Assembly: GCA_963663315.1 (NCBI GenBank)
Contig: OY760176.1
Coordinates: 69,822 to 133,821 of the forward strand
DNA: 64,000 nt
Source of the DNA: Arenicellales bacterium
Lineage (GTDB): Bacteria; Pseudomonadota; Gammaproteobacteria; Arenicellales; Poriferihabitantaceae
Direction: 5' to 3'
The stretch's first letter is position 1. Each line of letters begins with the position of its first letter. Below are positions 16,087 through 49,447 of the stretch, in pieces. Made by a program: the position numbers and the translations under genes. The notes under the pieces are model-generated. The model was not told where the DNA came from, did no database searches, and saw only the letters and a list, made by a program, of their open reading frames with translations.

Positions 16087-17217
16087 ATGTCCAATACCCG
16101 TCTTACCCAGCGTCTGATCGACGCCCTCAAACCCCGCAAGAAAACCTTCGATCTCCGCGACACGGAACTCAAGGGTTTCGGTGTCCGCGTGCGCAGCTCC
16201 GGAATCAAACGCTATTTCGTGCAAAGCCAGCATGAGGGGACCCGTACCTGGCGCATCATCGGCAATGCCGCCGCAATGACCCTTGAGGAAGCGCGCTGCC
16301 GCGCACGGTCGGTCCTCGCGTCCCTACACAACGGTGAGGAGATCATTGCCGCCACGAACGAGGAGACGCGGTTCGGGGTGGTCGCGGAGAAGCTGTTCGA
16401 GGCTTGCGAGAGGCACTGGAAGGTCAGCACCAGAAAGGCCAACCGTTTTTATCTCAAGAACCAGATACTGCCCTGGTTCCGGAACATGCAGGTCGCCGGG
16501 ATCACCGAGCGGGACGTCAAGCAATGGCACGCCTCGCTCCATGCGACTCCCTTCGCCGCCGACCGCGCGGCGCCCGTGCTCAGCGTTATCCTCAGGCAGG
16601 CTGAGGTTTATGGCTATCGCCCGGAGGGTTCCAACCCCTGTGTCGGTATCAGGCGATACCGGCGGCGTGGCCGGGAACGCTTTCTCTCGCCGGAAGAAAT
16701 GCAAAGGCTCGGCGCCGTACTGAGTCGGCATGAACCGGATCATCCGCTTGAGGCCGCAACGATCCGGCTGCTACTCCTGACCGGGTGCCGCCGCAACGAA
16801 ATCCTGACACTCAAATGGTCCGACTACCGCGAGGGGCACCTGTATCTGCGCGACTCCAAGACCGGGCCGAGGACGGTCTGGCTGTCGTCCCCGGCCCGCG
16901 GGATACTGGATGGGCTTCCCCGGCGTGGCGCGTGGATATTCCCTGCACGGCGAAGGCGGGGTTTCTTTTGCCGGACCATGATCCAATATTACTGGTCGAA
17001 GGTTCGGGGCGAGGCCGGACTTGGCGATGTCCGGTTGCATGACCTCCGGCACAGCTACGCCTCGGTGGCCCTCCTGAATGGTGCGACGGTCCCCACGATT
17101 GCCAAGCTCCTCGGCCACAACGATACGGCCACGACGCTGAAATACACGCATCTCAACCAAACTGCGGTCCGCGCGGCGGTCGAGACTGTTGCTCCGATCC
17201 TCGCCGGGGAGGCGTGA
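16087..17217 (+). CDS. Tyrosine recombinase/integrase (P4-like, DUF4102-type arm-binding N-terminus), type 1 of a doublet
   Basis: 376 aa. N-terminus LKPRKKTFDLRDTELKGFGVRV. Catalytic Arg in LLLLTGCRRNE, HDLRHSYAS, and Tyr in LKYTH. Confidence 0.92.
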   Translation: MSNTRLTQRLIDALKPRKKTFDLRDTELKGFGVRVRSSGIKRYFVQSQHEGTRTWRIIGNAAAMTLEEARCRARSVLASLHNGEEIIAATNEETRFGVVAEKLFEACERHWKVSTRKANRFYLKNQILPWFRNMQVAGITERDVKQWHASLHATPFAADRAAPVLSVILRQAEVYGYRPEGSNPCVGIRRYRRRGRERFLSPEEMQRLGAVLSRHEPDHPLEAATIRLLLLTGCRRNEILTLKWSDYREGHLYLRDSKTGPRTVWLSSPARGILDGLPRRGAWIFPARRRRGFFCRTMIQYYWSKVRGEAGLGDVRLHDLRHSYASVALLNGATVPTIAKLLGHNDTATTLKYTHLNQTAVRAAVETVAPILAGEA

Positions 17218-17220
17218 ACG

Positions 17221-18105
17221 ATGCCAGAAAATACTACGAGAAGAACGACGAGAAGAATACGACTGACCGACTCCAATGCGGGCAGGTTCAGACCGGGCGA
17301 GTCCGAGTACACGGTCCGGGACACGAAGACACCCGGCCTCGGTGTCCGGATCAAGCCATCAGGTTATCGGACCTGGGTGTATCACGGCAACGCCGCCGGC
17401 AGTCCCAGGCGCCACAGTCTTGGCCCCGTCAGCCTGAAAACAGTAGAGGATGCGCGGCTCGAATGTCTTGAAATCGGCTTGAAGGAACAGATCAGTGGCG
17501 CTCCGGATGAAACCGTGAAATTGGCCGTGCCCAAATTCCGTGACTTCGTCGAGGGAGAATGGAAGACGGCGCGTTACGACCATTTTAAACCCTCTACCAG
17601 GAAAGGCGTGGACAACGCTCTGAAAACCCAACTTCTGCCGAATTTCGGGACACTGCCGCTCGACCGGCTCACGCGCTCCCGTGTCAACCGGTGGTTTGAT
17701 CAATACAGCCGCAGTGCGCCGGGCGGCGCCAATCATGCCCTCGTTATCCTGTCAGGGATCCTGAATCATGCGATAGTCTGCGGGCACATCACGATGAATC
17801 CAGCCCGGGGTGTAAGGCGGAACCCGAGACGGAAGATGACCCGGTTTCTTTCTCGGGAGGAAATCCGCCGCCTTCACGCGGTGCTTGACGCCTGCGTGGC
17901 TGAACGTCCGGTGAACGCTCCAGCGGCGGATATCATCCGTCTCCTTCTGCTCACCGGATGCCGGCGCGGCGAGATCGTGAACCTGCAATGGCGCGAGGTG
18001 GGCGAGGACATCCTGGAACTTATGGACAGCAAGACCGGTCCCCGGACAGTGTTTCTCAGCCCGAAAGCAAAAGCCGTCATAGAACGACAGCCCCGACCGG
18101 ACTGA
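17221..18105 (+). pseudogene. Tyrosine integrase, type 2 of the doublet, 3'-truncated by an IS3-family insertion
   Basis: Collinear with the intact 34918..36093 protein up to ...IERQPRP. The frame then runs into the IS terminal TGA (18103-18105). The HxxR and Tyr catalytic blocks are missing. Confidence 0.85.
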
Positions 18106-18152
18106 ATCGCCCCGGGTTTGTCGGAGGCTCCATTTCTTGAGAGGATGGAGTA

Positions 18153-19372
<1,220 letters not shown>

Positions 19373-19411
19373 CTCAAACAACCGAGTCTCCGGAATTCCC
19401 GGGGCGATTCA

Positions 19412-19660
19412 TTGGAGCCGTTTGAGCGGTTCGCGGAATCGAACGCCACTATCGACGAATACGCCGCCATCATCGCGGAAGCCGATGAAGACGGTATTCT
19501 CCGGGCTCGAGTTCTCTTACCCAATAACGAAGCAATCACGTTGACCGTCGAGCCGTCCCGGCTCCTGTTTGGCGTCGACCGTGAGGCCTACAAACTGGCG
19601 TTGAACACATGTCGGGGTGCGGCAGCCTCAAAACTTTCGGTTGATGAGGAGGCTGCCTGA
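19412..19660 (+). pseudogene. 5'-truncated ORF remnant upstream of hsdR
   Basis: The frame is open from the first base after the IS end and has no ATG (the track uses TTG). Its stop overlaps the hsdR ATG (TGATG). Probably the tail of a type I R-M operon gene cut by the IS. Confidence 0.5.
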
Positions 19661-22600
19661 TGGCGTTCATCTCAGAAGCCGGTGTCGAGGCCGCACTACT
19701 CGATCAGCTCGAAGGCCTCGGTTATACCCGTCTTCCGGACGGCATCGCGGGACCCGACGGCTCCGCGCCCGAGCGCGCGTCCTATTCCGACGTGGTGCTG
19801 GTGGACCGCCTGAAACGGGCCGTGGATCGTCTCAACCCGGATATCCCGTCCGAGGCACGCCAAGATGCGTTGAAGAAGGTCATTGCCGACGAGACCCCGT
19901 CTCTGATCGAAGAGAACCGGCGTATTCACCGTGCCCTGGTCGAAGGCATCGATGTGGAGTTCTACGTCGAGGACGGCACCATACGCGGCGACAAGGTCCG
20001 TCTGATCGATTTCGGCGATCCGTCGGCGAACGACTGGCTGGCAGTGGACCAGTTCACGGTCATCCAACACGGCAACAACCGCCGTCCGGACGTGGTGGTG
20101 TTCGTCAACGGCCTGCCGCTGGGAGTGATCGAAATCAAGAACCCCGGCACCGAGAGTGCCACGCTAACCGGCGCCTACAACCAGTTGCAGACCTACAAGT
20201 CACAGATTCCGTCCCTGTTTCGAACCAATGCCGCGTTGGTGACTTCTGACGGCCTGATGGCGCGGATCGGCTCTCTGACAGCTAATGAAGAACGGTTCAT
20301 GCCATGGCGAACGACGGATGGCACCGATGTCGCGGCCAAGGGCAGTCCCGAGATGTCCGTGCTGATCGAGGGCGTGTTCGAACAGCGGCGGTTCCTCGAT
20401 CTAATCCGCGATTTCACGGTCTTCGGCGATACCGGATCGGGTATTTCCAAGATCATCGCGGGCTATCATCAGTATCACGCCGTGCGACACGCCGTGGAAA
20501 GCACGGTGGGTGCTACCTCGCCCGAAGGCAACCGCAAGGTGGGCGTGATCTGGCACACCCAGGGTTCCGGCAAGAGCCTTCTCATGGCGTTCTACGCGGG
20601 CCAACTGGTTCGACGACCGGAACTGCAAAACCCGACCATCGTTGTCATGACCGACCGCAACGACCTGGACGATCAGTTGTTCGGCACCTTCTCCATGTAC
20701 CGCGACCTGATCCGTCAAACGCCAATCCAGGCGGAAAACCGTGAGGATCTGCAAAAGGCGCTGAACCGGGCTTCGGGCGGGGTCATATTCACCACCATCC
20801 AGAAGTTTGCTCCCGCCAGGAGCGGGGCGGACTATCCTGCGCTGACGGACCGGCGCAACGTGGTGGTCATCGCCGATGAAGCGCACCGCAGCCAATATGG
20901 CTTCAAGGCAAGGGTTGAACAGAAGACCGGCGAGATCGCCTATGGCTTCGCCAAGTACCTGCGCGATGCGCTGCCCAACGCCTCTTTTATCGGGTTTACC
21001 GGAACGCCGATTGAGAAGGACGACGCCAACACGCCCGCCGTGTTCGGCCAGTACATCGACGTTTACGACATCAGCCGGGCGGTCGAGGACGGCGCAACGG
21101 TGCCGATTTATTACGAAAGCCGGTTGGCGCGCATCGAACTGCCCGATGAGGAAAAACCCAGAATCGACGCCGAGATCGAGGAATTGACCGAGGACGAGGC
21201 GATAACGGAGCAGGAGCGTCTGAAGCGTAAATGGTCGACCGTCGAAGCACTCGTCGGCGCGGAGAAGCGCCTCAAGATGGTGGCGGAAGATCTGGTGCGG
21301 CATTTCGAGGACCGAGTCGAGGCGATGGAAGGCAAGGCCATGGTGGTCTGCATGAGCCGCCGCATTTGCGTCGCTTTGTACAAAGAGATCATCGCCCTTC
21401 GCCCCGATTGGCATTCCGACGACGATAAGGGCGGCGCGATCAAAATCGTCATGACCGGCTCGGCAGCCGATCCTGAAGCCTGGCAGCCCTATGTGGGCAA
21501 CAAGACCCGCCGGGACCTGCTTGCCAAACGGGCGAAGGACCCGAGCGACCCGCTCATGCTGGTTATCGTCTGCGACATGTGGTTGACCGGCTTCGATGCC
21601 CCCTCCATGCACACCATGTACATCGACAAGCCCATGCGGGGTCATGGGCTGATGCAGGCCATCGCGCGGGTCAATAGGGTGTTCCAGGACAAGCCTGCCG
21701 GATTGGTGGTCGACTACATCGGCGTCGCTCAGAACCTGAAGAATGCGCTGGGCCAGTATTCGGCGGCGGACCAGAAGAACGCGGGGATCGACGAGGCCGA
21801 TGCCGTCGCAATGATGCTCGAAAAGTACGACGTGGTGCGCACCATGTACCACGGCTTCGATTACATGCGGGGCCTGGCCGGCACGCCTCAAGAGCGGCTT
21901 ATCGCCATGGCGGAGGCGATTGAGTGGATTCTTGAACGCCAGCACAAGGCCGCCGAGAGGGAAACGACGGAGGAGGCCAGGAAGAAGGCTCATCGTCGCT
22001 ACCAGGACGAAGTGCTCGCCTTGTCCAAGGCCTTTGCCTTTGCCGCCGCCAGTGACGACGCCCGCCAGATCCGCGACGAAGTCGGATTCTTCCAGACGGT
22101 CCGTGCCGCACTGGTCAAGTCGGCCCAAGGAACCGGCAAATCAGTCGCCGATCAGCAATTGGCGGTTCAACAGATCATCGACCGCGCCGTCGTCTCGACG
22201 GAGATCGTAGATATTTTGGCGGCAGCCGGCTTGGGAACGCCTGACATTTCAATCCTGTCGGAGGAGTTTCTGGCCGAAGTCCAGCAGATGGAGAAAAAGA
22301 ACCTTGCACTGGAAGCCTTGAAAAAGCTGCTCAATGACGAGATCACCTCCCGCAGCCGCTCGAACGTGGTGGAGACCAAACGGTTCTCAGACCGCCTGGA
22401 GCAGGCCGTGGCCCGTTACCACACCAATGCCATCAGCACGGTCGAGGTCCTCCAGGAACTGATCAATCTTGCCCGGGAAATTAGGGAAGCCCGGAAGCGC
22501 GGTGAAGACGAGGGCTTGTCCACGGACGAGGTGGCTTTCTACGACGCCCTGGCGGAGAACGAAAGTGCCATTGAGGTGATGGGTAATGACTCCCTCAAGC

Positions 22601-22803
22601 TCATCGCCCATGAACTGCTGAGTAGCCTCAAGTCCAACATCACGGTTGATTGGTCACACAGGGAGAGCGCTCGGGCGCGAATGCGGGTTCTGGTCAAACG
22701 TATCCTGCGCCACCATGGATATCCGCCAGACCTGCAAGATGCTGCCGTGCAGACGGTTCTGCAACAGGCCGAAGCCTTGTCCGCGCAATGGGCTACATCA
22801 TAA
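19660..22803 (+). CDS. hsdR: Type I restriction endonuclease subunit R
   Basis: 1047 aa. Typical N-terminus [24 protein letters not shown]2 helicase motifs ([22 protein letters not shown]) and a long helical C-terminal domain. No hsdM or hsdS in the window. Confidence 0.93.
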
Positions 22804-23004
22804 CACTGCTAATTTTGGGAATTTTATCGTTAACTATGTGTAGTCGGGCCGCGCCGACACCCTCAGTCCTTCACCCTGACATACCCTGGGAGGTTAGATA
22901 TCCCATTGGGAACATTGAGCTTTTGGCCCAGATGTAACTGTGAGTAATTCTCGTAGGTTTCCTGCGTCTAAAAAAGCACATACCCGTGAGCATCAAACAG
23001 AGCG

Positions 23005-23375
23005 GAGCTATGGCCAAATGTTGGTGACGCGTTGATCAGGCAGTGTCGTGGATGTGCTTGATGCCGTCCTTGTACGTCACTCCCTGGATGACTTCGACGA
23101 GATAGTCCGATCCATCGAGCGGACAGTGCCCCCGACGGCGCGAAACACCATTGGAGGATGGTAGTGGTGGGCCAGAACCGATTGCACGGGAGATGTGAGA
23201 GTGGACCGGAGCCCAGAGTTTCCCGCAGGACTGTGGGGAGGGGGGCACTTCGAATTCTTGACACTCCACGGCGAAGAGAGTAAGGTGCAACTGCAAGGGG
23301 ACAATCTCTACTCTTCTTGCCACAACGGTGTTCGGGGCACGACTCCCCGAGCGGACCGCATGGTCCAGCACGCAT
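23005..23375 (-). pseudogene. Decayed IS256-family element end with a frameshifted transposase C-terminus
   Basis: The terminal sequence GAGCTATGGCCAAATGTTGG... aligns at about 28 of 39 positions with the left end of the intact IS256-family element at 28820. The stop codon sits at the same offset (23036). PLDGSDYLVEVIQGVTYKDG matches KLDGSNHLAEIIRGVKFVDG. Upstream homology is scattered over three frames. Confidence 0.55.
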
Positions 23376-23614
23376 CGACCGAGTGAAAGCGTGTCTACGG
23401 GTTCCGGTCGCCGAAAGAATCGTCCGAGAGGGCGATCCCTGGAGAGGCTGCCTTCACCCGTCTTCGCGACATATACCGGTGTACTTTCAAGAAAGCCGCG
23501 GCCGCTCCAGCGCGTTTGTGCGAACTACGCCGGGTGCGTCGCTGCGTAACGGCTGCGATCCCGGCACGAGACGGGTTTGCGGCTCATAACAATGTTAGGG
23601 AGGATGTGTCTTCG

Positions 23615-24739
23615 ATGAAAAAAATCAGGGTGGCCATCGCTGGTGTCGGCAACTGCGCGAGTTCCTTGGTACAAGGGTTGGAATACTACCGGGGCCGCAA
23701 CGAGGCGTCATTCAGCGGTCTAATGAACGCAAAGATCGGCGATTGGGGGCCCAGCGATATCGAGATCGTGGCCGCCTTTGATGTCGACCGCCGTAAGGTC
23801 GGCAAGCGGGTGGAAAAAGCGATTTTCGCCAGACCCAACTGCACCAAAATATTCCAGAGCGCTCTGCCCGTATCCGAGGTCGTGGTGCGGATGGGACCGG
23901 TTCTCGATGGCGTCGCGCCTCACATGGCCGACTACCCGGATGACGAGGCTTTCCGCCCCTCTGACGAAGAACCGGTCGACGTCGTCCAAGTCCTCAAGGA
24001 CGCTCGGGCCGAAGTTCTGGTCTGCTACATGCCGGTTGGCTCGGAACAGGCGGTTCGGCACTATGCCAGGGCTTGCCTGGAGGCCAGCGTGGCCATGGTC
24101 AACTGCGTTCCGGTGTTTATGGCTTCCGACCCCGAATGGGCTGGGAAATTTCGCGATGCCGGCCTGCCCATCGTCGGCGACGACATCAAAAGCCAGGTCG
24201 GCGCCACCATCGTGCACCGGACCCTCGCTCGCCTGTTCGGAGACCGCGGCGTACCGCTTGATCGAACCTACCAGTTGAACACGGGCGGCAACACGGATTT
24301 TCTCAACATGAAGGCGCTCGACCGCTTGAAGTCCAAGAAAGTTTCCAAGACGGAATCCGTGCAGTCCCAGTTGGACGAACGGCTGGATTCCCGGAACATT
24401 CATATCGGGCCGTCCGATTACGTGCCGTGGCAGGACGACAACAAGGTTGCCTTCATCCGTATGGAAGGCCGCGGTTTCGGGGATGTGCCGTTGGAGTTGG
24501 AGCTCAGGCTGTCGGTCCAGGATTCACCCAACAGCGCGGGCGTGGTCATCGATGCGATTCGGTGCGCCAAGCTGGGGTTGGAGCGCGGCATCGGCGGTCC
24601 TTTGGAGGCGGCCTCCGCCTACTACATGAAGAGCCCGCCCAATCAGATGCGCGATTCGCTGGCCTATGAATTGACGGGTTCGTTTATCCAAGACAGAAAG
24701 GCCGGCGAGGGGACATCTCAAGCGGTCGCCGATGAATAG
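23615..24739 (+). CDS. ino1: myo-Inositol-1-phosphate synthase (short prokaryotic type)
   Basis: 374 aa counted from the ATG at 23615, which has GGGAGGA 10 nt upstream. MKKIRVAIAGVGNCASSLVQG Rossmann start, GDDIKSQVGAT, NTGGNTDF and SKKVSKTES blocks. Confidence 0.85.
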   Translation: MKKIRVAIAGVGNCASSLVQGLEYYRGRNEASFSGLMNAKIGDWGPSDIEIVAAFDVDRRKVGKRVEKAIFARPNCTKIFQSALPVSEVVVRMGPVLDGVAPHMADYPDDEAFRPSDEEPVDVVQVLKDARAEVLVCYMPVGSEQAVRHYARACLEASVAMVNCVPVFMASDPEWAGKFRDAGLPIVGDDIKSQVGATIVHRTLARLFGDRGVPLDRTYQLNTGGNTDFLNMKALDRLKSKKVSKTESVQSQLDERLDSRNIHIGPSDYVPWQDDNKVAFIRMEGRGFGDVPLELELRLSVQDSPNSAGVVIDAIRCAKLGLERGIGGPLEAASAYYMKSPPNQMRDSLAYELTGSFIQDRKAGEGTSQAVADE

Positions 24740-25604
24740 TCTCGCCGGTCAGGCCGCCAACAACGGTCCGGGCGGTGGCAACACAATCCGGACCGTGGAC
24801 TCGCCCTGGGTGGAACGGCTGCTCACGCTCCACCGCCAAGTGCGGAGCGCGGTCGCGAAAGCCGGCCTCGAAGCAATCGGGTCCAAGAACCCGAAGGGTG
24901 ACGACGTTAAACGGTTCGACCTTGCCGCCAATGACGCGGCATTGGCCGTTCTAAGGCGACTCCAAGTGCCGGTTGTCGTCGATTCCGAGGAGAGCGGGCG
25001 CCAGGAAATCGGCTCCGGCACACCGCGGCATCGCCTCGTCCTCGATCCGGTGGACGGGTCCGACAACTGGGCGCGGGGAATGCCGTTATCGGCCTTGTCC
25101 TGTGCCGTGCTGCCAATCGACGCCCCTCTCCAGCCCGATTGGGTCGAGGCGGCCCTGGTCGGGCCGCTCGAACAGGAAACGCCCCTGATCGCGTTCAAGG
25201 GCTCCGGGGCCTGGCGCGGGAACGAGCGTCTCGCAACATCGCAGCTTGGCACCATTGCCAGGGCCACGATTTCGGTCGAACTCAACCATCATTCTCCGTC
25301 GCCGGGGCTTGTCCACCTAATCGCGGCCGCCAGGGGAGTGCGGTGCTATGGCTGCGCTTCGCGCGCCATCTCCCTGGTCGCCGAGGGCGCGACCGACGCC
25401 CATGTGGACGTGCGTGGCCGTCTGACGGTGGAAAGCTACCTCGCCGCTGCGCGGTTGGTGATCGAGGCGGGAGGCTGGATTGTTGGCCTCGATGGCGCGC
25501 CCCTGGCGGCGCCGGAAGGCTTGACCGACCGCGTCGGCCTGATTGCGGCGGCGAGCCGGGAGCTCTGTGAGGAAATCGTGGAACTCCTGGGCGATGCAGG
25601 ATAG
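24732..25604 (+). CDS. Inositol-monophosphatase-family phosphatase
   Basis: 290 aa. Metal-binding DSEESG and LDPVDGSDNW motifs. C-terminal AAARLVIEAGG. Overlaps ino1 by 8 nt. Confidence 0.8.
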   Translation: MNSLAGQAANNGPGGGNTIRTVDSPWVERLLTLHRQVRSAVAKAGLEAIGSKNPKGDDVKRFDLAANDAALAVLRRLQVPVVVDSEESGRQEIGSGTPRHRLVLDPVDGSDNWARGMPLSALSCAVLPIDAPLQPDWVEAALVGPLEQETPLIAFKGSGAWRGNERLATSQLGTIARATISVELNHHSPSPGLVHLIAAARGVRCYGCASRAISLVAEGATDAHVDVRGRLTVESYLAAARLVIEAGGWIVGLDGAPLAAPEGLTDRVGLIAAASRELCEEIVELLGDAG

Positions 25605-25741
25605 TGGCTTGGCAAACCCGGCGCCGGAGGGGGCGCTGATTATGGCAGCCGGGCTGGGATCGCGGTTTCGACCGGGAACCAAGACACCGAAGCCCCTGAC
25701 CAGGGTGCTCGGACTGAGCCTCGCCGAACGGGTCGTCTGCA
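25594..25741 (+). pseudogene. 5' fragment of a second nucleotidyltransferase (IPCT-domain) gene
   Basis: ATG at 25594 overlaps the IMPase stop. Encodes ...ALIMAAGLGSRFRPGTKTPKPLTRVLGLSLAERVVC, paralogous to residues 15-52 of the 26819 protein. Homology stops abruptly at 25741. Confidence 0.7.
25683..25741 (+). repeat. 59-bp direct repeat, copy 1 (57/59 identical to 26911..26969)
   Basis: GACACCGAAGCCCCTGA(C)CA(G)GGTGCTCGGACTGAGCCTCGCCGAACGGGTCGTCTGCA, read directly from the sequence. Confidence 0.9.
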
Positions 25742-25847
25742 TGTTCGGGCCGCCAACGACAAGCTCGGCCGTGGCTCGTGTCGTTTCCCCGGCAACGAAG
25801 TGTCTGAGAATTTACACCAACCGACCTCGGTCTGGGCTCAATATCAT

Positions 25848-26759
25848 ATGTACGATGTCTGCATAATTGGCCACGTCACAAGGGATATTGGCGCATTTAA
25901 CCGACGGCCCGGGAGCGAGATGCCGGGCGGAGTTGTCAACTACGCGGGGATCGCGCTTCAGAGCCTAGGCCTCAAGACCGCGGTCATCACCAAAGCGGCA
26001 AATGTCGATGCCGACGAGATCCTGGGACAGCTGCGGAAAATTGGCGTCAAGGTCCATTGGCTTGCTAGCCGGTCGACCACGGTCTTTGAGAATAATTACT
26101 CGGGAAACGGACTCGAATTCAGGAATCAGAAAGTCCGGTCGATCGCTAATACTTTCGACCCCCGCTGTCTGCCACCGGTTTGGGCCAAGACGTTTTATCT
26201 CGGTCCGCTCACGAATGGCGAAATGTCCGCCGAATTTGTGAAAGCGGTGTCCGAGCGGGACGGTCGCGTGTTTTTGGACGTTCAAGGCTTTCTCAGAGAG
26301 GTCGAGAACGGAAAGGTCCGCTTGGTCGACTGGCCCGAGAAGCGGGAGGTGCTCGCTCATGTCCACGTCTTGAAGGCGAACCTCGCCGAGGCCCGATTCC
26401 TGTCGGGAGAGAAAGAACCCGAGCGCGCGGCGCGAAAGCTTGTCGAACTCGGGCCGGAGGAGGTCATCTTGACGTTCGGCGGCAACGGTTCTCTTATCCT
26501 TGCAGGGGGGCGCCTCTACGACATTCCAGCCTATCCGCCGCGGGTTGTCGCCGACCCTACCGGCTGCGGCGACACCTACAGCGCCGGTTACATCTTTCAC
26601 CGGCTGCAATCGGATGACATCGGAGCCGCCGGCCGGTTCGCGGCTGCCCTGGCGGCGCTCAAACTGGAACGTCATGGACCGTTCACGGGCGACGCGCAAG
26701 AGGTCCAAGCTCGCCTGAGAGAAGCCGAGGCCATGGCGGAGTCGGACCGCCAAGAATGA
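25848..26759 (+). CDS. PfkB/ribokinase-family carbohydrate kinase (candidate inositol kinase)
   Basis: N-terminal GG region MPGGVVNYAG and C-terminal DPTGCGDTYSAGYI (DTxGAGD-type). I prefer the ATG at 25848. The track uses GTG at 25800. Confidence 0.8.
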   Translation: MYDVCIIGHVTRDIGAFNRRPGSEMPGGVVNYAGIALQSLGLKTAVITKAANVDADEILGQLRKIGVKVHWLASRSTTVFENNYSGNGLEFRNQKVRSIANTFDPRCLPPVWAKTFYLGPLTNGEMSAEFVKAVSERDGRVFLDVQGFLREVENGKVRLVDWPEKREVLAHVHVLKANLAEARFLSGEKEPERAARKLVELGPEEVILTFGGNGSLILAGGRLYDIPAYPPRVVADPTGCGDTYSAGYIFHRLQSDDIGAAGRFAAALAALKLERHGPFTGDAQEVQARLREAEAMAESDRQE

Positions 26760-26818
26760 TGCCAAATCTGACGGCCCGGCCAACCGCGCGTCGTGCGATA
26801 AAATCATCGGAAGTCTGA

Positions 26819-28183
26819 GTGATGGTGGGAACTAACGACCAGATAGCGACCCCGGAGGTTGCGGTGATGCTTGCTGCTGGACTTGGGTCACGCCTATTTC
26901 CGCAAACCACGACACCGAAGCCCCTGATCAAGGTGCTCGGACTGAGCCTCGCCGAACGGGTCGTCTGCACGTTGCTGGACGCAGGCGTCCGGCGGGTCCT
27001 CGTCACTCTGGGTCATGAGGCCGAATCAGTGAAGGAGCATTTTTCCGGCATCGCCCGGCGTCGCGGCGTCACGATCGACTTCATCGAAGCCGAGGGCTGG
27101 GAGCAGGGCAACGGCGCCAGCGCCCTGGCGGCCAAGGGTCGCACCGGCGAGGCGCCCTTCTTCCTGGTCATGATCGATCATCTGTTCAATCCCGCAATCG
27201 CACGGGCCCTGGCCAACGACCCGCCGGCAGTGGGCGAACTTCGCCTCGCCGTGGACCGCGACAAAGGCGCCATCTTCGATCTCGACGATGTCACCCGGGT
27301 CAAGATCGACGACGGACGCATTAAGGAAATCGAGAAGAACCTCGACGATTGGGATGCCGGCGACACCGGGGTCATGCTTTGCACGACCGGCCTGTTCGAA
27401 GGTCTCGAGCGCGCGGCGGCAAGCAACAAGCACGGGCTTTCCGACGGGCTCAGGGAACTGGCGCGCGAGGGGCGGGCGAGAACCGTCGACGTGACTGGAA
27501 TGCGGTGGCTCGACGTGGACACGCCCGACGCCTTGCGTGAAGCCGAACGACGTCTGATGCGCGACCAGGGCCGCAAGACCCGGGACGGGCCGGTGTCGCG
27601 CCATCTCAACCGCCCGGTTTCCCGATGGCTCAGCCGCTATCTGGTACGCACGGCGGTAACGCCCAACCAAGTCTCCCTGGCCTCGTGGATACTGTCCTGC
27701 AGTGCTGCGGGGTTGATGGCATTGGGCGGCTATCCCGCCCTGGCCGCCGGTGGCGTGCTGGCGCAACTGGCCTCGATCATCGACGGTTGCGATGGCGAGA
27801 TCGCCCGGCTGAAGCATTCCCAGAGCGAGTTCGGCGGCTGGTTCGACGCGGTCCTCGATCGGTATGCCGACGCCGCCCTGTTGTTCGGCCTGATGTGGCA
27901 CGAATTCGCTGCGACCGGCACAACCCTGTCCGTCGTGCTGGGGTTCGCGGCAATTGTCGGGTCGTTCCTAAACAGCTATACGGCGGACAAGTACGACGGG
28001 CTGATGGCTCAAAGGTTGCGAGGCGTCTCATACGTCCGGCTGGGCCGTGACGTTCGGGTGTTCGTCATCTTCCTTGGCGCCATCCTGAACCAGCCATTAT
28101 TCACCCTGGGTGTCGTTGCATTGGTGATGAATTTGGAAGTAGTTCGAAGGATCGTGATGTACAGGCGCGCTGCAGCGTCATAG
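26819..28183 (+). CDS. Bifunctional nucleotidyltransferase / CDP-alcohol phosphatidyltransferase (IPCT/DIPPS-like)
   Basis: 454 aa. N-terminal AAGLGSRL...KPL sugar-phosphate nucleotidyltransferase motif. The C-terminal membrane domain has an exact DG-x2-AR-x8-G-x3-D-x3-D signature (DGEIAR LKHSQSEF G GWF D AVL D). Confidence 0.85.
   Translation: MMVGTNDQIATPEVAVMLAAGLGSRLFPQTTTPKPLIKVLGLSLAERVVCTLLDAGVRRVLVTLGHEAESVKEHFSGIARRRGVTIDFIEAEGWEQGNGASALAAKGRTGEAPFFLVMIDHLFNPAIARALANDPPAVGELRLAVDRDKGAIFDLDDVTRVKIDDGRIKEIEKNLDDWDAGDTGVMLCTTGLFEGLERAAASNKHGLSDGLRELAREGRARTVDVTGMRWLDVDTPDALREAERRLMRDQGRKTRDGPVSRHLNRPVSRWLSRYLVRTAVTPNQVSLASWILSCSAAGLMALGGYPALAAGGVLAQLASIIDGCDGEIARLKHSQSEFGGWFDAVLDRYADAALLFGLMWHEFAATGTTLSVVLGFAAIVGSFLNSYTADKYDGLMAQRLRGVSYVRLGRDVRVFVIFLGAILNQPLFTLGVVALVMNLEVVRRIVMYRRAAAS
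26911..26969 (+). repeat. 59-bp direct repeat, copy 2
   Basis: Lies within the 5' part of the IPCT/DIPPS-like gene. Has two mismatches to copy 1. Confidence 0.9.
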
Positions 28184-28819
28184 CGGGCGAATGGGCTAAC
28201 TGAGAACGGCAGAGCAATAATCCCCCACTGAAGCGGCCGGTCGATCCGGCTGCGGCGGACCAAAATGGGACCGCGTATAGCCTTCTGTCAGGGTTGCTCT
28301 GACTGGAAGGCGGGGGGGATGTATCGGGTGGAGTTGTACGCACGGGTTCGGCGGGCGTGTCATGTCGAGGGGATGAGCACCCGCGAGGCCTCGCGGGTGT
28401 TTGGTGTAGACCGCAAGACAGTCCGTAAGATGCTGTCGTTCTCGGTGCCGCCAGGGTATCGCCGAAGCGCGCCGCCGAGGCGGCCAAAGCTGGGTCCGTT
28501 CACGGGAATCATCGATCGGATCTTGGAAGACGATCGGACCAGCCACCGCAAGCAACGGCACACTGCGAAGCGCATCTTCGACCGCCTCCGGGACGAGTAC
28601 GGTTTCACGGGCGGCTACACCATCGTGAAGGACTACGTTCGTGAGCAGGGGCTTCGGTCGCGTGAGGTGTTCGTGCCACTCTCCCATTCCCCCGGTCACG
28701 CCCAGGCGGACTTCGGCGAAGCGATGGCGGTGATCGGCGGCGCGTTACGGAAGATCCACTTCCTTGCCTTCGACCTTCCCCACAGTGATGGTTGCTTTGT
28801 TGCGGCCTATCCGGCGGAG

Positions 28820-30194
28820 GAGCTATTGTCAAAAGTTGTGTATGGGCTGATCATGCGGCGGCGCGATCCTGGCGTTCTCCATCTACGAATTTGACGCCGC
28901 GAATGATCTCGGCGAGATGGTTCGATCCATCGAGTTTTCTCCATTTTCTCTGAGCGCACTGGCATAGTTTGAAGACCATGGCCATCGCCGTCTTGCGCGA
29001 CAGGCAGCCCTTGGTCCGGTAGGTGCGCAGACGAACCGTGGCGAACGTGCTCTCGATGGGGTTGGTCGTGCGTACATGCTTCCAGTGCTCGGCGGGGAAG
29101 TCGTAGAACGTCAGCAGGACGTCGCGGTCCTTGGCCAGGCAGGCCGCGGCCTTGTCGTACTTCGGCCCGTAGGCTTCCAGGAAGAAGTCGAAGGCGCTCT
29201 CGGCATCCTTCCTGGTTTCGGCCATCCAGATGTCTTGCAGGCGCCCCTTGGCTTTCTTTTGCAGACCCTTGGGCAGCTTGTTCAAGACGTTGCCCGTCTT
29301 GTGAACCCAGCAGCGTTGCTCGCGGGCGCCTGGGTAGACTTGGCGGAGCGCCTTCCAGAAGCCGAGCGCGCCGTCGCCGAGCGCCAGTTGCGGACCCATT
29401 TCAAGGCCGCGCCGCTTGAGATCGAGCAGAACTTCGAGCCAGGACTGCTCACTTTCGCGATAGCCGTCGGCGATGGCGATCAGTTCCTTCTGTCCCTTGT
29501 CCGTGGCCCCGACGATCACCAGGATGCACTGCTTCTCTTCCTCCATGCGGGCGCTGAAATAGATGCCGTCCACCCAGAAATAGACGTAGCGCTTGGCCGT
29601 GAGGTCGCGCCGTTGCCAGCGCTCCGCCTCAACCCCCCAGACCTCTTTCAGCCGGGTGATCGTGGAGGCCGAAAGCCCCGGCGCGGAGCTCCCCAGGAGC
29701 GCCGCCAAGGCTTCCCCGAAGTCGCCGGTGGAAATGCCCTTCAGATACAGCCATGGCAAAAGGTCTTCCAGGCTCTTGGCGCGGCGCAGATAGCGCGGCA
29801 GGATCGCCGACGTGAAGCGGATGGCGCCGTCCCCCCGGTCCCGCACACGGGGTTGGCGCACGCTCACCGGGCCGATCCCGGTCTGGATGAAGCGTTCCGG
29901 CAGATATCCATTGCGGACAACCCGGCGGCGGCCGGCGGCGTCAACAAGCGCCGCATGGCTACCCAAAAACACGGAGACCTCGGCCTCAACGGCTTGGGCC
30001 AACAACTCGCGAGCTCCAGCTTGTAGGACTTCCGTCAACGTATCTTTCTGAAAATCAGATGGGTTTTGAAAAGCAACAACGGTATTCTCTTTCATGGCGT
30101 ATCCTTCCTTGGCTTAGCTCAAGTGGTGACATCAACAATCACCAGGATACGCCGCCTTCATTTCAACGCCGTACACAAGATTCGGTTATAGCTC
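28820..30194 (-). mobile_element. IS256-family insertion sequence with a 9-bp target-site duplication
   Basis: 1375 bp. Imperfect terminal IRs GAGCTAT.... Flanked by CCGGCGGAG at 28811-28819 and at 30195-30203. Confidence 0.9.
28851..30095 (-). CDS. IS256-family (mutator-type) transposase
   Basis: 414 aa. YVYFWVDGIY, GDGALGF and QRCWVHKTGNVLNK blocks typical of IS256 transposases. Confidence 0.9.
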   Translation of the reverse strand: MKENTVVAFQNPSDFQKDTLTEVLQAGARELLAQAVEAEVSVFLGSHAALVDAAGRRRVVRNGYLPERFIQTGIGPVSVRQPRVRDRGDGAIRFTSAILPRYLRRAKSLEDLLPWLYLKGISTGDFGEALAALLGSSAPGLSASTITRLKEVWGVEAERWQRRDLTAKRYVYFWVDGIYFSARMEEEKQCILVIVGATDKGQKELIAIADGYRESEQSWLEVLLDLKRRGLEMGPQLALGDGALGFWKALRQVYPGAREQRCWVHKTGNVLNKLPKGLQKKAKGRLQDIWMAETRKDAESAFDFFLEAYGPKYDKAAACLAKDRDVLLTFYDFPAEHWKHVRTTNPIESTFATVRLRTYRTKGCLSRKTAMAMVFKLCQCAQRKWRKLDGSNHLAEIIRGVKFVDGERQDRAAA

Positions 30195-31198
30195 CCGGCG
30201 GAGACGACCGAAGCATTCTGCGATGGCCACAACGCGGCGTTTGCCTTCTTCGGCGGCGTCCCCCGATCCATCCTGTACGACAACACCAAGCTGGCGGTTG
30301 CCCGGATCCTGGGCGATGGGAAGCGGCAGCGAACGCGCGTCTTCACGGAGCTTCAGTCCCACTATCTGTTCGAGGACAGGTTCGGCCGGCCGGGCAAGGG
30401 CAACGACAAGGGCAAGGTCGAGGGACTGGTCGGCTTCATCCGGCGGAACTTCCTGGTCCCCGTCCCGCGTGCCGAGAGCTTCGCGGCCCTCAACGATGCT
30501 CTCGCCGAACAGTGCCGCCGGCGCCAGGCGGCGCGGCTGCGGGGCCACAAGGAGACCATCGGCGAGCGTCTCGAGCGGGATCGTCAAGTTCTCTTGCCAT
30601 TGCCGCCTGCTCCCTATGATGCCTGCGATAAGCGCCCTGGACGGGCGAGTTCGCTGTCGCTGGTGCGTTACCGCAGCAACGACTATTCCGTGCCCGTGGC
30701 CTACGGCCACCGTGAGGTGCTCATCCGGGGCTACGTCGATGAGGTGGTGATCAGCTGCGGGGCCGAGGTGATCGCCCGGCACCGCCGGTCCTACGACAGC
30801 GAGGACCTGATCTTCGACCCGCTGCATTACCTGCCCTTGATCGAGCAGAAGATCGGCGCCCTCGACCAGGCCGCGCCATTGGCGGGCTGGGACCTGCCCG
30901 AGGCCTTCATCACTCTGCGGCGGCTCCTCGAAGCTCGTATGGGCAAGGCAGGCAAGCGCGAGTACGTCCAGGTGCTCCGTCTACTGGAGACCTTCCGGCT
31001 CGAGGAGGTCGAGGGTGCGGTCGGCGACGCCCTGCGGCTCGGCGCAATCGGCTTTGATGCGGTGAAGCACCTGGTACTGTGCCGCATCGAGCGGCGGCCG
31101 CCCAGGCTCAACCTCGACGTCTATCCGTATCTGCCGCGCGCCCGGGTCGCGATGACGTCCGCCAAGTCGTACATGAGCCTGCTGTCGGGGCTCGGCGC

Positions 31199-31963
31199 AT
31201 GACCGACACACCGCAAGTGCTGCTCGCCCACCACCTCAAGACGCTGAAGCTGCCGACCTTCCTGCGCGAGTACGACAAGATCGCCCGGCAGTGCGCCTCG
31301 GAAGGCGTCGATCACGTCCGCTACCTGTTGAGACTCGCCGAGCTCGAGCTGATCGACCGCGAGCGCCGCATGGTCGAGCGGCGCATCAAGGCGGCGCGCT
31401 TCCCCGTGGTCAAGAGCCTCGACAGCTTCGACTTCAAGGTCATCCCCTCGCTCAACAAGGCGCTGGTCCTGGAGCTGGCCCGCTGCGAGTACATCGAGCG
31501 CCGCGAGAACCTCATCGCGCTCGGCAACAGTGGGACCGGCAAGACCCACATCGCCCTCGGTCTCGGCCTGGCGGCCTGCCAGAAGGGCCTCTCGGTCGGC
31601 TTCATCACCGCCGCCGCGCTGGTCCACGAACTCATCGAGGCCCGCGATGACAAGCAGCTGCTGAGGTTCCAGAAGAAGCTCGCCACCTACAAGCTTCTGA
31701 TCGTCGACGAACTCGGCTTCGTGCCGCTGTCGAAGACCGGCGCCGAGCTGTTGTTCGAGGTGTTCAGCCAACGCTACGAGCGGGGCTCGACCCTGGTCAC
31801 CACCAATCTGCCCTTCGACGAATGGACCGAGGTGTTCGGCTCCGAGCGCCTCACCGGCGCGCTCCTCGATCGCCTCACCCACCACGTCAACATCCTCGAG
31901 ATGAACGGTGACAGCTACAGGCTCAACCAGAGCCGCAGGCGTCAAACCCCGACTGCTAACTGA
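31199..31963 (+). CDS. istB: IS21-family helper ATPase IstB
   Basis: 254 aa from the ATG that overlaps the istA stop. Walker A GNSGTGKTH and Walker B LLIVDELG. Confidence 0.92.
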   Translation: MTDTPQVLLAHHLKTLKLPTFLREYDKIARQCASEGVDHVRYLLRLAELELIDRERRMVERRIKAARFPVVKSLDSFDFKVIPSLNKALVLELARCEYIERRENLIALGNSGTGKTHIALGLGLAACQKGLSVGFITAAALVHELIEARDDKQLLRFQKKLATYKLLIVDELGFVPLSKTGAELLFEVFSQRYERGSTLVTTNLPFDEWTEVFGSERLTGALLDRLTHHVNILEMNGDSYRLNQSRRRQTPTAN

Positions 31964-32004
31964 ACTGAATCGCCCCGGGAATTCCGGAGACTCGGTTGTT
32001 TGAG

Positions 32005-33224
<1,220 letters not shown>

Positions 33225-33281
33225 TACTCCATCCTCTCAAGAAATGGAGCCTCCGACAAACCCGGGCGATTCACCATCGAT

Positions 33282-36093: not shown

Positions 36094-36096
36094 GGC

Positions 36097-37221: not shown

Positions 37222-37552
37222 GGTCTTTTCTCCGGTTTCGAGTTGCAACCGGGGCAGGTTTTGGGTGCATGCCCCGAGAAGAACCAGAGAAAAAACGGTG
37301 TTTAATGGTTAGTTTTGCTTGGATTTTACTGTGCACATTCTGTGCAGAGGTGTGAGAAGGTTATTATTACTTGATACGTTTCGCGAGAGGATATAGACTG
37401 CATAATCGGAGATCAAGGGGAATTTGGCCCTGCCTTGGAACGGGGCGGGACATTTGTAATTGACCGGTCGAAGGGTGGAATTGATCGGCTGTCGGGCCAA
37501 TGGCAGAATTCGGGCCTGATTGCGAATTCTGGAAACAGCGGGGAGATGGACG

Positions 37553-39126: not shown

Positions 39127-39402
39127 TGCTATGTTGCTATCCTCCGAGGCGTGCTGCCCCGTCGTGATGACTCTTTGTTTCACGCGCTCGCAGCGGAGCC
39201 ACGATGGCCGGAATGCCTGCGCCGGGGGGATGCGCGAGTGGTGCGGGCGCAGGGAGCGGAGCGACTGAGCCACGGTCGCGTATTCAACCGGCGCTAGCCG
39301 CGCAGCGGCGTGGCATTGCGCGCTATCGCCGTAACGGAGCGCGAGCGGAGTGGAGGACCCCGCAGGGGTTGGCGCAGTGAGAACGTGTGGGACAAAGAGT
39401 CA

Positions 39403-47962: not shown

Positions 47963-47980
47963 ATACCGGGAGACAGAACA

Positions 47981-49054: not shown

Positions 49055-49100
49055 TGTATCAACTATAATATCTGATTTAATATTTGACCGGAAAAATAAA

Positions 49101-49433
49101 ATGGGTATAGAACTTGGTGGGCGCAGTTATGACACTGATGAGGAGGGCTACCTCGCAAATCTGTCTGACTGGAGTCCTGAGATAGCGGGCCTGATGGCCA
49201 AACTGGATGATTGCGACCTGGGTGAACATCACTGGGAGGTGATCAATTTTCTGCGTAATTATTACGAAGAATATCAAATCGCTCCTGCAGTCCGGGTGTT
49301 GACCAAGTCGATTGGCAGAACACTGGGAAAAGATAAGGGTAACAGCAAATATCTTTATCAACTGTTCCCTTATGGGCCGGCCAAACAGGCCTGTAAATAT
49401 GCCGGACTGCCAAAGCCAACAGGCTGCGTCTAG
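49101..49433 (+). CDS. dsrC: DsrC sulfur-carrier protein
   Basis: 110 aa. The C-terminal arm QACKYAGLPKPTGCV carries both conserved cysteines. HWEVINFLRNYY is also present. Confidence 0.93.
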   Translation: MGIELGGRSYDTDEEGYLANLSDWSPEIAGLMAKLDDCDLGEHHWEVINFLRNYYEEYQIAPAVRVLTKSIGRTLGKDKGNSKYLYQLFPYGPAKQACKYAGLPKPTGCV

Positions 49434-49447
49434 TCAGTTTCCTGCGC

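Follow-up and report, generated by a model that had tools for sequence, protein, structure and literature searches.

Di-myo-inositol phosphate (DIP) is a protective solute known chiefly from heat-loving microbes. A cluster of four genes in the genome of an Arenicellales bacterium raises the question of whether this solute, or some other product of CDP-inositol, is encoded there and of how the genes were acquired. The window analysed is the whole stretch of 64,000 nucleotides (contig OY760176.1, positions 69,822 to 133,821), and all coordinates below refer to it. The gene content suggests, with a probability of about 0.62, that the cassette is a self-sufficient route to a soluble inositol phosphodiester, most probably DIP. 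The four genes all lie on the + strand within 23615-28183, and the cassette comprises the following features.

23233-23614, + strand: upstream non-coding leader, the left edge of >99% identity to other genomes
23615-24739, + strand: MIPS, myo-inositol-3-phosphate synthase (PF01658, TIGR03450, PDB 1gr0)
24732-25604, + strand: IMPase-family phosphatase of the archaeal FBPase/IMPase type (PF00459, NF009321)
25594-25749, + strand: 5' remnant of a second IPCT/DIPPS-like fusion gene, aligning with the fusion gene start in L002 and L025
25750-25847, no strand: recombination junction/spacer, with identity to L001 beginning at 25802
25848-26759, + strand: PfkB (ribokinase-family) kinase (PF00294, 89 bits)
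26819/26822-28183, + strand: IPCT/CDP-alcohol transferase fusion (PF00483/PF12804 N-terminal, PF01066 C-terminal)
28184-28200, no strand: 3' tail of the cassette, truncated by an IS21 insertion according to an 11-locus boundary comparison

The identities that an earlier note had assigned to the four genes were confirmed by profile and structure matches. MIPS matched PF01658 with 119 bits (Pfam cut-off 27) and TIGR03450 with 475 bits, and its structure match was PDB 1gr0 (E = 2e-127). The MIPS gene overlaps the IMPase gene by 8 nt. The IMPase-family product matched PF00459 with 52 bits (cut-off 27), the top NCBIfam model was the archaeal bifunctional FBPase/IMPase NF009321 (E = 5.5e-37), and the closest PDB matches were PH1897, MJ0109 and AF2372. 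The SEE and DPVDGSDN motifs, the latter within LDPVDGSDNW, are kept and the canonical Asp of the third motif is replaced by an invariant E-S; the enzyme is a putative phosphatase of DIPP and of inositol phosphate. The contig collection has the identical IMPase protein in 72 of its blocks. The cassette genes are under purifying selection with dN/dS of 0.07-0.36, the range for MIPS being 0.07-0.14.

The PfkB product aligned full-length, at low identity (97 bits), with the pyrophosphate-dependent 1-kinase TM0415 of Thermotoga maritima (E = 1e-26) and the 3-kinase TK2285 of Thermococcus kodakarensis (E = 3e-8). The inositol-contact residues of these kinases (PMC5931981), D11, N78, Q141 and R145, are kept together with K171 and the GxGD catalytic motif. 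The pyrophosphate signature given in the same source is gone (R229 to P, R232 to C and M266 to L); with two of the three pyrophosphate-binding arginines lost in addition to the methionine, NTP is predicted as the phosphate donor. Positions 76 and 89, which influence the hydroxyl that is phosphorylated, differ from those of TM0415 and TK2285 and are F and Q in the window kinase. Relatives of the kinase with 53-76% identity repeatedly adjoin MIPS. The alignments, the four contact residues and this adjacency back the earlier guess of an inositol kinase; the predicted role is salvage of free inositol through NTP-dependent phosphorylation of myo-inositol.

The fusion gene, for which the ATG at 26822 agrees with a 453-aa database protein, is central to the identity of the product. 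The protein is colinear over its full length with the IPCT/DIPPS family NF041135 (272 bits, E = 8.6e-81, below the curated cut-off of 580 bits) and with PDB 4mnd (E = 1e-49); further PDB matches were AF2299 (E = 2e-39), 2xme (E = 2.9e-20) and 4jd0 (E = 4.9e-11). The N-terminal domain scored 125 bits with the IPCT part of NF041135 and 69 bits with the next family, and the PDB IPCTs 2xme and 4jd0 outranked every other nucleotidyltransferase. The C-terminal domain, in which the motif DGCDGEIARLKHSQSEFGGWFDAVLD starts at residue 321, scored 131 bits with the DIPPS part, 89 bits with the archaetidylinositol-phosphate synthase model and 73 and 67 bits with those of PIP synthases. By these scores, both domains match the characterised IPCT and DIPPS best. 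The two-domain fusions AF0263 (PDB 4mnd) and Thermococcales NF041135 resemble the window protein in domain order, nucleotidyltransferase G-loop, KPL motif, D1xxD2GxxAR...G...D3xxxD4 motif, six-helix membrane domain and linkage to MIPS. However, the identity is only ~30%, and the hosts of AF0263 and NF041135 are hyperthermophiles whereas those of the window family are cold or mesophilic bacteria.

Orthology of the transferase domain with characterised DIPP synthases is not established by the sequence comparisons. The genuine A. fulgidus DIPPS domain scored 268 bits with the DIPPS model, twice the score of the window domain, and AF2299 scored 150 bits, which places the window domain and AF2299 equally distant from AfDIPPS. 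In direct comparison the C-terminal domain is closer to AF2299 (PDB 4o6m), its closest solved relative (139 bits over 195 residues, through the last helix), than to AfDIPPS (87 bits). AF2299 is a CDP-alcohol phosphotransferase to which no physiological reaction has been assigned (PMC8633023). Motifs SYTxDK, RDxR and LRR are common to AF2299 and the window protein, but the match covers only query residues 255-449; the N-terminal domain of AF2299 does not align with the full IPCT-like domain of the window protein. In a neighbour-joining tree, built from a set without the characterised bacterial DIPPS (Aquifex, Rubrobacter, Thermotoga) and the Rhodothermus lipid synthase, AF0263, AF2299 and the window family formed three branches whose order was not resolved.

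The AlphaFold2 model of the fusion contains a juxtamembrane helix and six transmembrane helices, with 4mnd as the top fold match, and the protein ends five residues past the last helix without extra C-terminal helices. The juxtamembrane plus six-helix architecture has been tied to soluble acceptors, and neither AF2299 nor AfDIPPS, the nearest solved relatives, processes lipids (PMC4634129); the model therefore points to an enzyme type with a soluble acceptor. The RxxR motif, which in PIP synthases binds the acceptor phosphate, is retained (RDVRV).

A survey of 79 related GTDB loci addressed the gene context. MIPS is linked in 58 loci. The IMPase type lies between MIPS and the fusion gene in 41, a DUF4202/HD-like gene overlaps the fusion stop codon in 25, and the two occur together in none. 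One or the other phosphatase gene is thus tightly coupled in 66/79 loci; coupling to the transferase across the family implies a phosphorylated product, and favours a phosphorylated soluble product (DIPP converted to DIP) over a lipid.

In the proposed pathway, MIPS would convert glucose-6-phosphate to L-myo-inositol-1-phosphate, and the kinase would form inositol phosphate with NTP, not pyrophosphate, from free myo-inositol that is imported or released by the phosphatase. The N-terminal domain of the fusion would join inositol-1-phosphate and CTP to CDP-inositol, and the membrane-embedded C-terminal domain would transfer the inositol-phosphoryl group to a second inositol-1-phosphate, the presumed acceptor, to yield DIPP. 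Dephosphorylation of DIPP, the putative substrate of the IMPase-family enzyme, would give DIP, which may then accumulate as a solute. Counting against DIP are the fusion score of 272 against the cut-off of 580, the absent third-motif Asp of the IMPase and the finding that some related cassettes (L092, L054, L062) have no phosphatase.

It is unlikely, though of the alternatives the one to be taken most seriously, that CDP-inositol instead feeds a membrane inositol phospholipid with diacyl- or dialkyl-glycerol or ceramide as acceptor. Such a route, IPCT plus BEPIS, is described for Rhodothermus marinus and proposed in some Bacteroidetes in PMC4587543 (citing Jorge 2015) and PMC9246714. The R. 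marinus MIPS-IPCT-BEPIS operon and the Bacteroides vulgatus-type cluster each combine MIPS with genes for an IPCT-like nucleotidyltransferase and for a CDP-alcohol transferase, and their intermediate is CDP-inositol, as proposed for the window. The route has reported homologues in Alphaproteobacteria, the group from which most genomes of the window family come; the transferase is membrane-integral, and true DIPPS orthology is not established. In the described lipid systems, however, separate genes encode the nucleotidyltransferase and the transferase, and a phosphatase is absent, whereas in the window the two are fused and accompanied by an IMPase, and the coupling of a phosphatase in the family survey also argues against a lipid. 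A lipid-type proxy on Sphingomonas parapaucimobilis plasmid NZ_CP155750.1 likewise lacks a phosphatase and, besides MIPS and a CDP-alcohol transferase, has its nucleotidyltransferase as a stand-alone gene; the 283-aa transferase is only 26% identical to the window domain (36 bits) and has AxxR in place of RxxR. The extra helices for a lipid acceptor (PMC4634129) are also missing from the six-helix window domain.

Ranked below the lipid, and also improbable, is another soluble phosphodiester, glycero-phospho-inositol or X-phospho-inositol, made from CDP-inositol and the phosphate of a non-inositol alcohol. The greater proximity of the C-terminal domain to AF2299 than to AfDIPPS would fit, AF2299 having been crystallised with CDP-glycerol (PMC4634129), and phosphatase coupling suits any phosphorylated product. 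Yet inositol phosphate has two independent sources within the cluster, where no gene would supply a different alcohol phosphate, the fused IPCT domain indicates CDP-inositol as donor, and characterised enzymes of the exact fusion architecture yield DIPP (4mnd; NF041135). It is very improbable that the genes have no function in their present host and are carried along, inert or decaying, on an island rich in junk. Insertion sequences and gene fragments crowd the island, which also has an orphan hsdR, a gene remnant lies inside the cassette, and other copies carry insertion sequences within it; but all four frames are intact in the window and in 10 other copies, the insertions in those copies are confined to the intergenic remnant region and spare the genes, catalytic motifs are kept and the low dN/dS speaks for function.

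The description of the gene set as unusual in the earlier note was overstated: homologues number in the thousands, and the three-gene operon (MIPS-IMPase-fusion) recurs across many phyla in metagenome-derived genomes from the deep sea, under purifying selection with synonymous sites unsaturated. IPCT/DIPPS had already been published for non-thermophiles, as a fused IPCT/DIPPS with adjacent IMPase on a small genomic island in Thaumarchaeota from hadal and deep-sediment settings (PMC7265257, PMC8397731) and as MIPS with IPCT/DIPPS in Atribacteria (bioRxiv 10.1101/536078). Those systems were read as serving a stress or pressure solute, and horizontal transfer was invoked, as here; the window differs in its bacterial host, the added kinase, the carriage among insertion sequences and the >99% identity among co-resident genomes.

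The surroundings of the cassette support the claim of foreign DNA bracketed by insertion sequences. GC content is 0.60-0.65 across ~16-40 kb of the window against ~0.50 in the flanks, four tyrosine-integrase genes are present, and the cassette is enclosed as follows.

18103-19411, + strand: IS3-family element, left copy of an inverted pair (rve and HTH_21 domains)
19660-22803, + strand: hsdR, type I restriction R subunit (TIGR00348, 616 bits)
28201-31965, + strand: IS21-family element, istA/istB (NF033546, E = 3e-36 at 28265-28894)
28820-30194, - strand: IS256-family element, transposase at 28851-30095 (NF033543, 320 bits)
31966-33274, - strand: IS3-family element, right copy

The IS3 copies form an inverted repeat of 1301 nt with 100% complementarity and enclose 12.55 kb, in which the cassette lies together with hsdR and IS21::IS256; the pair showed no matching target duplications. 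IS256 interrupts the IS21 element, which on its right side directly adjoins the IS3 copy; 30195-31965 matches the istA/istB region of L082 and L087 at 100% identity. The IS256 element has a 9-bp target duplication, CCGGCGGAG, and is 99.6% identical to the copy in L014; in L082, L087 and L088 it occupies another position in the cassette. The region of 19412-22828 containing hsdR is 98-99% identical to L082, L087, L088 and L089, and hsdR co-travels with the cassette in some genomes. The backbone carries dsrA, B, M, K, L, O, P and N, a gene set that fits the sulfur-oxidising host named in the earlier note.

Beyond this locus, the ~5-kb cassette recurs with 99.4-99.9% DNA identity in six or more genomic contexts, each time amid insertion sequences. 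Copies were found in differing contexts in L081-L090 and L001, one of the bearing genomes being alphaproteobacterial, and their host flanks have 57-68% GC against the ~50% of the backbone here. The common sequence starts at ~23238-23241 (compared with L083, L085, L086 and L089; >99% identity), and the 3' tail common to other copies runs ~100 bases further in the boundary comparison. No Rfam family or above-chance promoter was found in the leader. Because the same samples yielded several unrelated bacterial genomes with near-identical copies, the cassette looks like a stress trait that was traded recently. It is passenger DNA without a transposase of its own; on the favoured reading, recombination and the insertion sequences on its flanks have carried it from one co-resident genome to another, and it reached this sulfur oxidiser of ~50% GC from a high-GC donor.

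The earlier note had overlooked the remnant between the IMPase and kinase genes, which is the first 52 codons of a second fusion gene and overlaps the IMPase stop codon as the intact fusion gene does in relatives. Its protein is 71-76% identical to relatives, and it forms with the intact gene the direct repeat D1 (25619-25745 and 26847-26973, 80% identical). The remnant marks the cassette as recombinant, with a MIPS-IMPase-fusion operon as one parent and a kinase-fusion module as the other. The junction/spacer region is an insertion hot-spot in other copies, with IS1595 at 25841-25848 in L081 and IS256 at 25617-25624 in L082, L087 and L088.

The four same-strand genes of the cassette were found where the earlier note had placed them, as borne out by an open reading frame map and profile searches. 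They are listed with the principal features of the surrounding DNA.

Features of the cassette and its surroundings in the window
18103-19411 and 31966-33274, inverted pair of IS3-family elements, 100% identical over 1301 nt
19660-22803, hsdR (type I restriction R subunit), an orphan, hsdM and hsdS being absent from the window
23615-24739 (+), MIPS (inositol-3-phosphate synthase): PF01658, 119 bits; TIGR03450, 475 bits; structure 1gr0, E = 2e-127
24732-25604 (+), phosphatase: PF00459 (IMPase family); top NCBIfam match the archaeal bifunctional FBPase/IMPase model, E = 5.5e-37
25848-26759 (+), kinase, a PfkB protein
26819 or 26822 to 28183 (+), fusion gene: NTP_transferase domain joined to a CDP-alcohol phosphotransferase domain

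The structure matched by MIPS, 1gr0, is the inositol-3-phosphate synthase of Mycobacterium tuberculosis. The MIPS and phosphatase genes overlap by 8 nt, and the top structure matches of the phosphatase were PH1897, MJ0109 and AF2372. The set had been described as a complete route of the di-myo-inositol phosphate (DIP) type; the gene calls are confirmed and the interpretation is supported, the most likely function being to make DIP, or else a closely similar soluble phosphodiester of inositol, and to salvage inositol. The gene set belongs to an already known pathway type, and it owes its value to being mobile and shared within a community, and to three testable predictions of function, namely for the inositol-kinase clade, a divergent IMPase subfamily and DUF4202.

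The fusion protein is colinear over its entire length with NF041135, the Thermococcales model of inositol-phosphate cytidylyltransferase/DIPP synthase (IPCT/DIPPS; E = 8.6e-81), and also aligned with the A. fulgidus IPCT/DIPPS structure 4mnd (E = 1e-49), which was the top match in a fold search with the AlphaFold2 model of the fusion. The N-terminal domain has the NTP_transferase fold and is nearest to CTP:inositol-1-phosphate cytidylyltransferases, scoring 125 bits over NF041135 positions 3-220 versus 69 bits for the next family and matching the IPCT structures 2xme (E = 2.9e-20) and 4jd0 (E = 4.9e-11). It carries the sequence LAAGLGSRL...PKPL, which fits the loop motif GxG(T/S)R...KPL. The C-terminal class I CDP-alcohol phosphotransferase domain scored 38.9 bits with PF01066 (cut-off 22), and the eight-residue CDP-alcohol signature (D1xxD2G1xxAR...G2xxxD3xxxD4), DGCDGEIARLKHSQSEFGGWFDAVLD, starts at residue 321. 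Alignment with AF2299, an A. fulgidus CDP-alcohol phosphotransferase, reaches residue 449 of 454. Helices in the AlphaFold2 model (pLDDT 69) span residues 257-274, 281-300, 304-331, 339-365, 368-398, 409-421 and 425-452. The N-terminal domain is predicted to form CDP-inositol from CTP and Ins-1-P, and the C-terminal domain would join CDP-inositol to Ins-1-P to yield DIPP, the phosphorylated intermediate of DIP.

The gene neighbourhoods are the strongest discriminator between a solute and a lipid as the product. Over 79 related loci, MIPS was linked to the fusion gene in 58, and in 41 the IMPase type sat between the two. A gene for a DUF4202/HD-like protein of ~190 aa with a weak HD-domain match overlaps the fusion stop codon in 25 of the 79 (L048, L050, L053, L055-L057, L059-L061, L063-L067, L069-L076 and L078-L080; for example, 2620-3189 in L069). 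The IMPase type and DUF4202 occurred together in none (0/79), and most of the remaining loci are truncated contigs. Since two unrelated and mutually exclusive phosphohydrolase families are tied to the transferase, the product would carry a phosphate needing removal, the logic of the DIPP-to-DIP step. The DUF4202 protein is a candidate alternative DIPP phosphatase, which if true would assign DUF4202 a function. In the window phosphatase the Glu of (S/T)EE and the DPxDG(S/T) motif are present, and the Asp that archaeal IMPases carry in the third metal-binding motif, (W/x)DxAAG, is replaced by an invariant E-S-(Y/W)-L-A-A in 41 of 41 cluster-linked homologues (L002-L058). The protein scores under the NCBIfam equivalog cut-offs (127 vs 264) and over the Pfam cut-off. 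The cluster-linked subfamily is under purifying selection (dN/dS 0.15-0.36), and its predicted activity is plausible.

A real alternative to a soluble product is an inositol lipid made by a CDP-inositol-dependent route. Two reports (PMC4587543, PMC9246714) describe an ether inositol lipid made via CDP-inositol in Rhodothermus marinus from a MIPS-IPCT-BEPIS operon, BEPIS being the lipid-synthesis enzyme, and propose a similar route for some Bacteroidetes. Calibration of the scores also limits the soluble reading. The identification of the fusion as an IPCT/DIPPS stood in so far as DIPPS was the nearest family by model, but orthology to the characterised DIPP synthases was not borne out, the whole fusion scoring 272 bits against a curated cut-off of 580; NF041135 covers Thermococcales only, so that a score below its cut-off is compatible with the same function. 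On the DIPPS model the C-terminal domain scored 131 bits, whereas the genuine AfDIPPS domain scored 268 and AF2299, the physiological role of which is unsettled (PMC4634129; PMC8633023), scored 150. A pairwise search likewise placed the window domain nearer AF2299 (139 bits) than AfDIPPS (87 bits), and a neighbour-joining tree left the window family, AF0263 (the A. fulgidus IPCT/DIPPS) and AF2299 as a trichotomy, well separated from the PIP synthases.

The DIPPS score of the window domain is nonetheless ahead of those on the models for archaetidylinositol-phosphate synthase (89 bits) and PIP synthases (73 and 67 bits). The fusion shows a juxtamembrane helix and six transmembrane helices and no further helix at the C-terminus, an arrangement typical of enzymes with soluble acceptors, and its C-terminal domain retains the RxxR motif. 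A coupled phosphatase step is not needed by the route from CDP-inositol to lipid, and the BEPIS type pairs a stand-alone IPCT with a stand-alone lipid-accepting transferase and no phosphatase, whereas the window domains are fused and the phosphatase is coupled. As lipid-type comparator, a Sphingomonas proxy stood in for the Rhodothermus lipid synthase; its transferase is just 26% identical to the window domain. This locus, L097, lies on Sphingomonas parapaucimobilis plasmid NZ_CP155750.1 (301402-304069) and comprises overlapping genes for a CDP-alcohol phosphatidyltransferase, MIPS and an NTP transferase. The three-gene operon has the layout expected for CDP-inositol-dependent lipid synthesis, here in a cultured alphaproteobacterium; the three proteins are separate and a phosphatase is absent, in contrast to the fused, phosphatase-linked arrangement of the window. 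A further locus, L094, in which a kinase lies beside a short CDP-alcohol transferase and a HAD hydrolase, was rejected as a lipid-type comparator, the transferase being similar at motif level only.

The proposed role of the PfkB protein as an inositol kinase is backed by alignment with TM0415 and TK2285, by the inositol-contact residues and by the adjacency of MIPS to relatives. The closest solved relative is TM0415 (E = 1e-26, end-to-end alignment), a pyrophosphate-dependent myo-inositol 1-kinase, followed more weakly by TK2285, a myo-inositol 3-kinase (PMC5931981). That study defined the inositol contacts D11, N78, Q141 and R145 (TM0415 numbering) and a five-residue pyrophosphate signature, and tied positions 76 and 89 to regiospecificity. 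The window kinase keeps GxGD, K171 and all four contacts; GxGD and the contacts are kept in 9 of 10 family members examined, the exception being P0390 with H for N78. The pyrophosphate signature K171, F221, R229, R232, M266 reads K, Y, P, C, L in the window kinase, and its family shares the K as well as the P, C and L. A TM0415-type, pyrophosphate-dependent kinase was rejected, two of the three PPi-binding arginines being missing; the protein was therefore left out of the PPi-dependent subclass, and we infer from these residues a myo-inositol kinase that would use a nucleoside triphosphate. Positions 76 and 89 differ; of the two candidate products, Ins(1)P and Ins(3)P, just the latter, identical with L-Ins-1-P, would feed IPCT. 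Among remoter relatives, at 45-76% identity, five were examined; three stand directly after MIPS, one of these within a MIPS-kinase-fusion cassette. In L008 and L062 the cluster gained other PfkB kinases by independent events. An IS-flanked MIPS-kinase-fusion arrangement without a phosphatase occurs in L092 (4581-8360), which shares a sample with the window organism, whereas L093 (4659-6891) and L095 (4811-6888) have a MIPS-kinase pair alone, with no downstream enzyme.

Positions 25594-25749, not remarked on in the earlier note, hold the opening 52 codons of another fusion gene, a copy that breaks off at ~25750. This remnant overlaps the IMPase stop codon exactly as does the intact fusion gene of relatives, and close relatives have contiguous MIPS, IMPase and fusion genes and no kinase. 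From 25802 onward the kinase and intact fusion gene are 99.7% identical to L001, a locus of an alphaproteobacterial genome with no MIPS or IMPase inside its 8-kb flanks. Together these results indicate that the cassette is a recombinant in which a kinase-fusion module was joined into a MIPS-IMPase-fusion operon. L092 was rejected as the direct source of the module, being just 76% identical. L008 (6102-7119) offers a second case in which the start of a gene is left over next to a kinase insertion: a 42-codon 5' fragment of MIPS precedes a kinase, 38% identical, that lies between MIPS and IMPase. In L031 (162-2952) the fusion gene is present twice in tandem, at 70% and 74% identity to the window protein.

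At least 2935 members of the fusion family were detected. The labels of genomes with fusion proteins 80-87% identical to that of the window include Alphaproteobacteria, Nitrosomonadaceae, Thermodesulfobacteriota, Planctomycetota, Binatia and Pelagibacter; judged by isolate names rather than metadata, many of these genomes stem from projects on trenches, seeps, seamounts and deep water. Synonymous divergence between copies is 0.34-1.1, far below saturation for different phyla, which indicates comparatively recent transfers. The exact IMPase protein was found in 72 contig blocks, 10 of which contain contigs above 1 Mb. The whole cassette was present in ten sampled places (L081-L090) with 99.4-99.9% DNA identity and at least six different neighbourhoods, all IS-rich (IS3, IS21, IS256, IS1595, IS66, IS5-like and IS6-like), and in several samples on two different contigs; the window organism shares a sample with L085, L089 and L092. 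In four copies IS256 or IS1595 lies within the remnant or spacer, and no insertion was found in the genes. Flanks in the other hosts are 57-68% GC, so that the cassette, at about 62%, suits those hosts and not the window backbone. That different genomes from the same samples carry near-identical copies documents that a metabolic trait has spread very recently, under selection and by way of IS elements. No viral contig encoded a relative and no PLSDB plasmid carried the cassette or fusion gene, the plasmid matches being unrelated MIPS genes and separate-domain homologues.

DIP has long been regarded as a signature of hot marine life. The reading proposed here, to which we assign a probability of roughly 0.4, is that DIP may be a horizontally traded pressure, cold or osmotic stress solute of cold deep-sea, probably sponge-associated bacteria. 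Its genes would form a compact, IS-shuttled cassette more than 99% identical across distant members of one community, in which a recruited clade of NTP-dependent myo-inositol kinases would feed in inositol from the host or environment, and the part of dedicated DIPP phosphatase would be played alternatively by a divergent subfamily of IMPases or by the unrelated DUF4202/HD-like proteins. Should DIP be the product, its ecological meaning would widen from heat to deep, cold, possibly host-associated habitats and cover dozens of bacterial phyla, beyond Thaumarchaeota. Hadal Thaumarchaeota have a small island with IPCT/DIPPS and an adjacent extra IMPase, with transcripts at 2 °C (PMC7265257), and deep-sediment Thaumarchaeota likewise have IPCT/DIPPS with an adjacent extra IMPase (PMC8397731). 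Atribacteria are reported to carry MIPS together with IPCT/DIPPS (bioRxiv 10.1101/536078), and DIP synthesis genes are listed for SAR116 (PMC12262181). A literature search of incomplete coverage found no paper on the cassette in bacteria, on the kinase, on DUF4202 as an alternative or on the spread. The ~5-kb cassette with four intact genes is a ready test object for what a mesophilic IPCT/DIPPS-like enzyme makes.

The view of the surrounding DNA as foreign, GC-rich and IS-bracketed within the backbone of a sulfur oxidiser is upheld by the GC contrast, the inverted IS3 pair and the dsr genes. The GC content is 0.60-0.65 over about 16-40 kb of the window and roughly 0.50 in the backbone, which encodes dsrA, B, M, K, L, O, P and N, a urea transporter and housekeeping genes. 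Both island/backbone junction regions recur in a second assembly, from sample ERZ28669063, making a chimeric assembly unlikely. The IS3 pair encloses 12.55 kb containing hsdR, the cassette and IS21::IS256; the IS21 begins 17 nt past the fusion stop codon and is interrupted by IS256 with a 9-bp target duplication. Two IS copies around passenger DNA may form a composite transposon, for which a target-site duplication at the outer ends would be expected. Matching target duplications were not found at the outer or inner IS3 junctions, nor were terminal inverted repeats or target duplications that would mark either the cassette or the segment bracketed by IS3 as a transposon in its own right. The cassette edges differ by context, each set by different IS insertions. 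The window has no tRNA gene and no tRNA attachment site for the island. In the non-coding leader of 380 nt (23233-23614), a search for regulatory RNA gave only a chance-level Rfam match (E = 0.62), and promoter and terminator scans were at or under shuffled expectation.

The dsrAB-MKL-OP-N cluster, including DsrL, occupies 46628-57500 and is in keeping with a sulfur oxidiser of the reverse-Dsr type that is related to sponge-associated Gammaproteobacteria. The nearest matches of the backbone LysA came from Candidatus Spongiihabitans (69%), among named sequences, and from further Gammaproteobacteria. An IS3 copy adjoins 19412, the start of similarity to other loci. Restriction-modification genes accompany the cassette in L082, L087, L088 and L089, and in L087 a 98%-identical hsdR follows hsdM, hsdS and an Abi_C gene. 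Near the ends of the GC-rich island are four tyrosine-recombinase (integrase) genes, one partial, in two tandem pairs at 16087-18105 and 34918-37248. Also inside the island, at 38197-39273 (-), is a gene for a YspA/SLOG (PF10686) domain protein with a faint match to phage Pam3 gp59-like protein.
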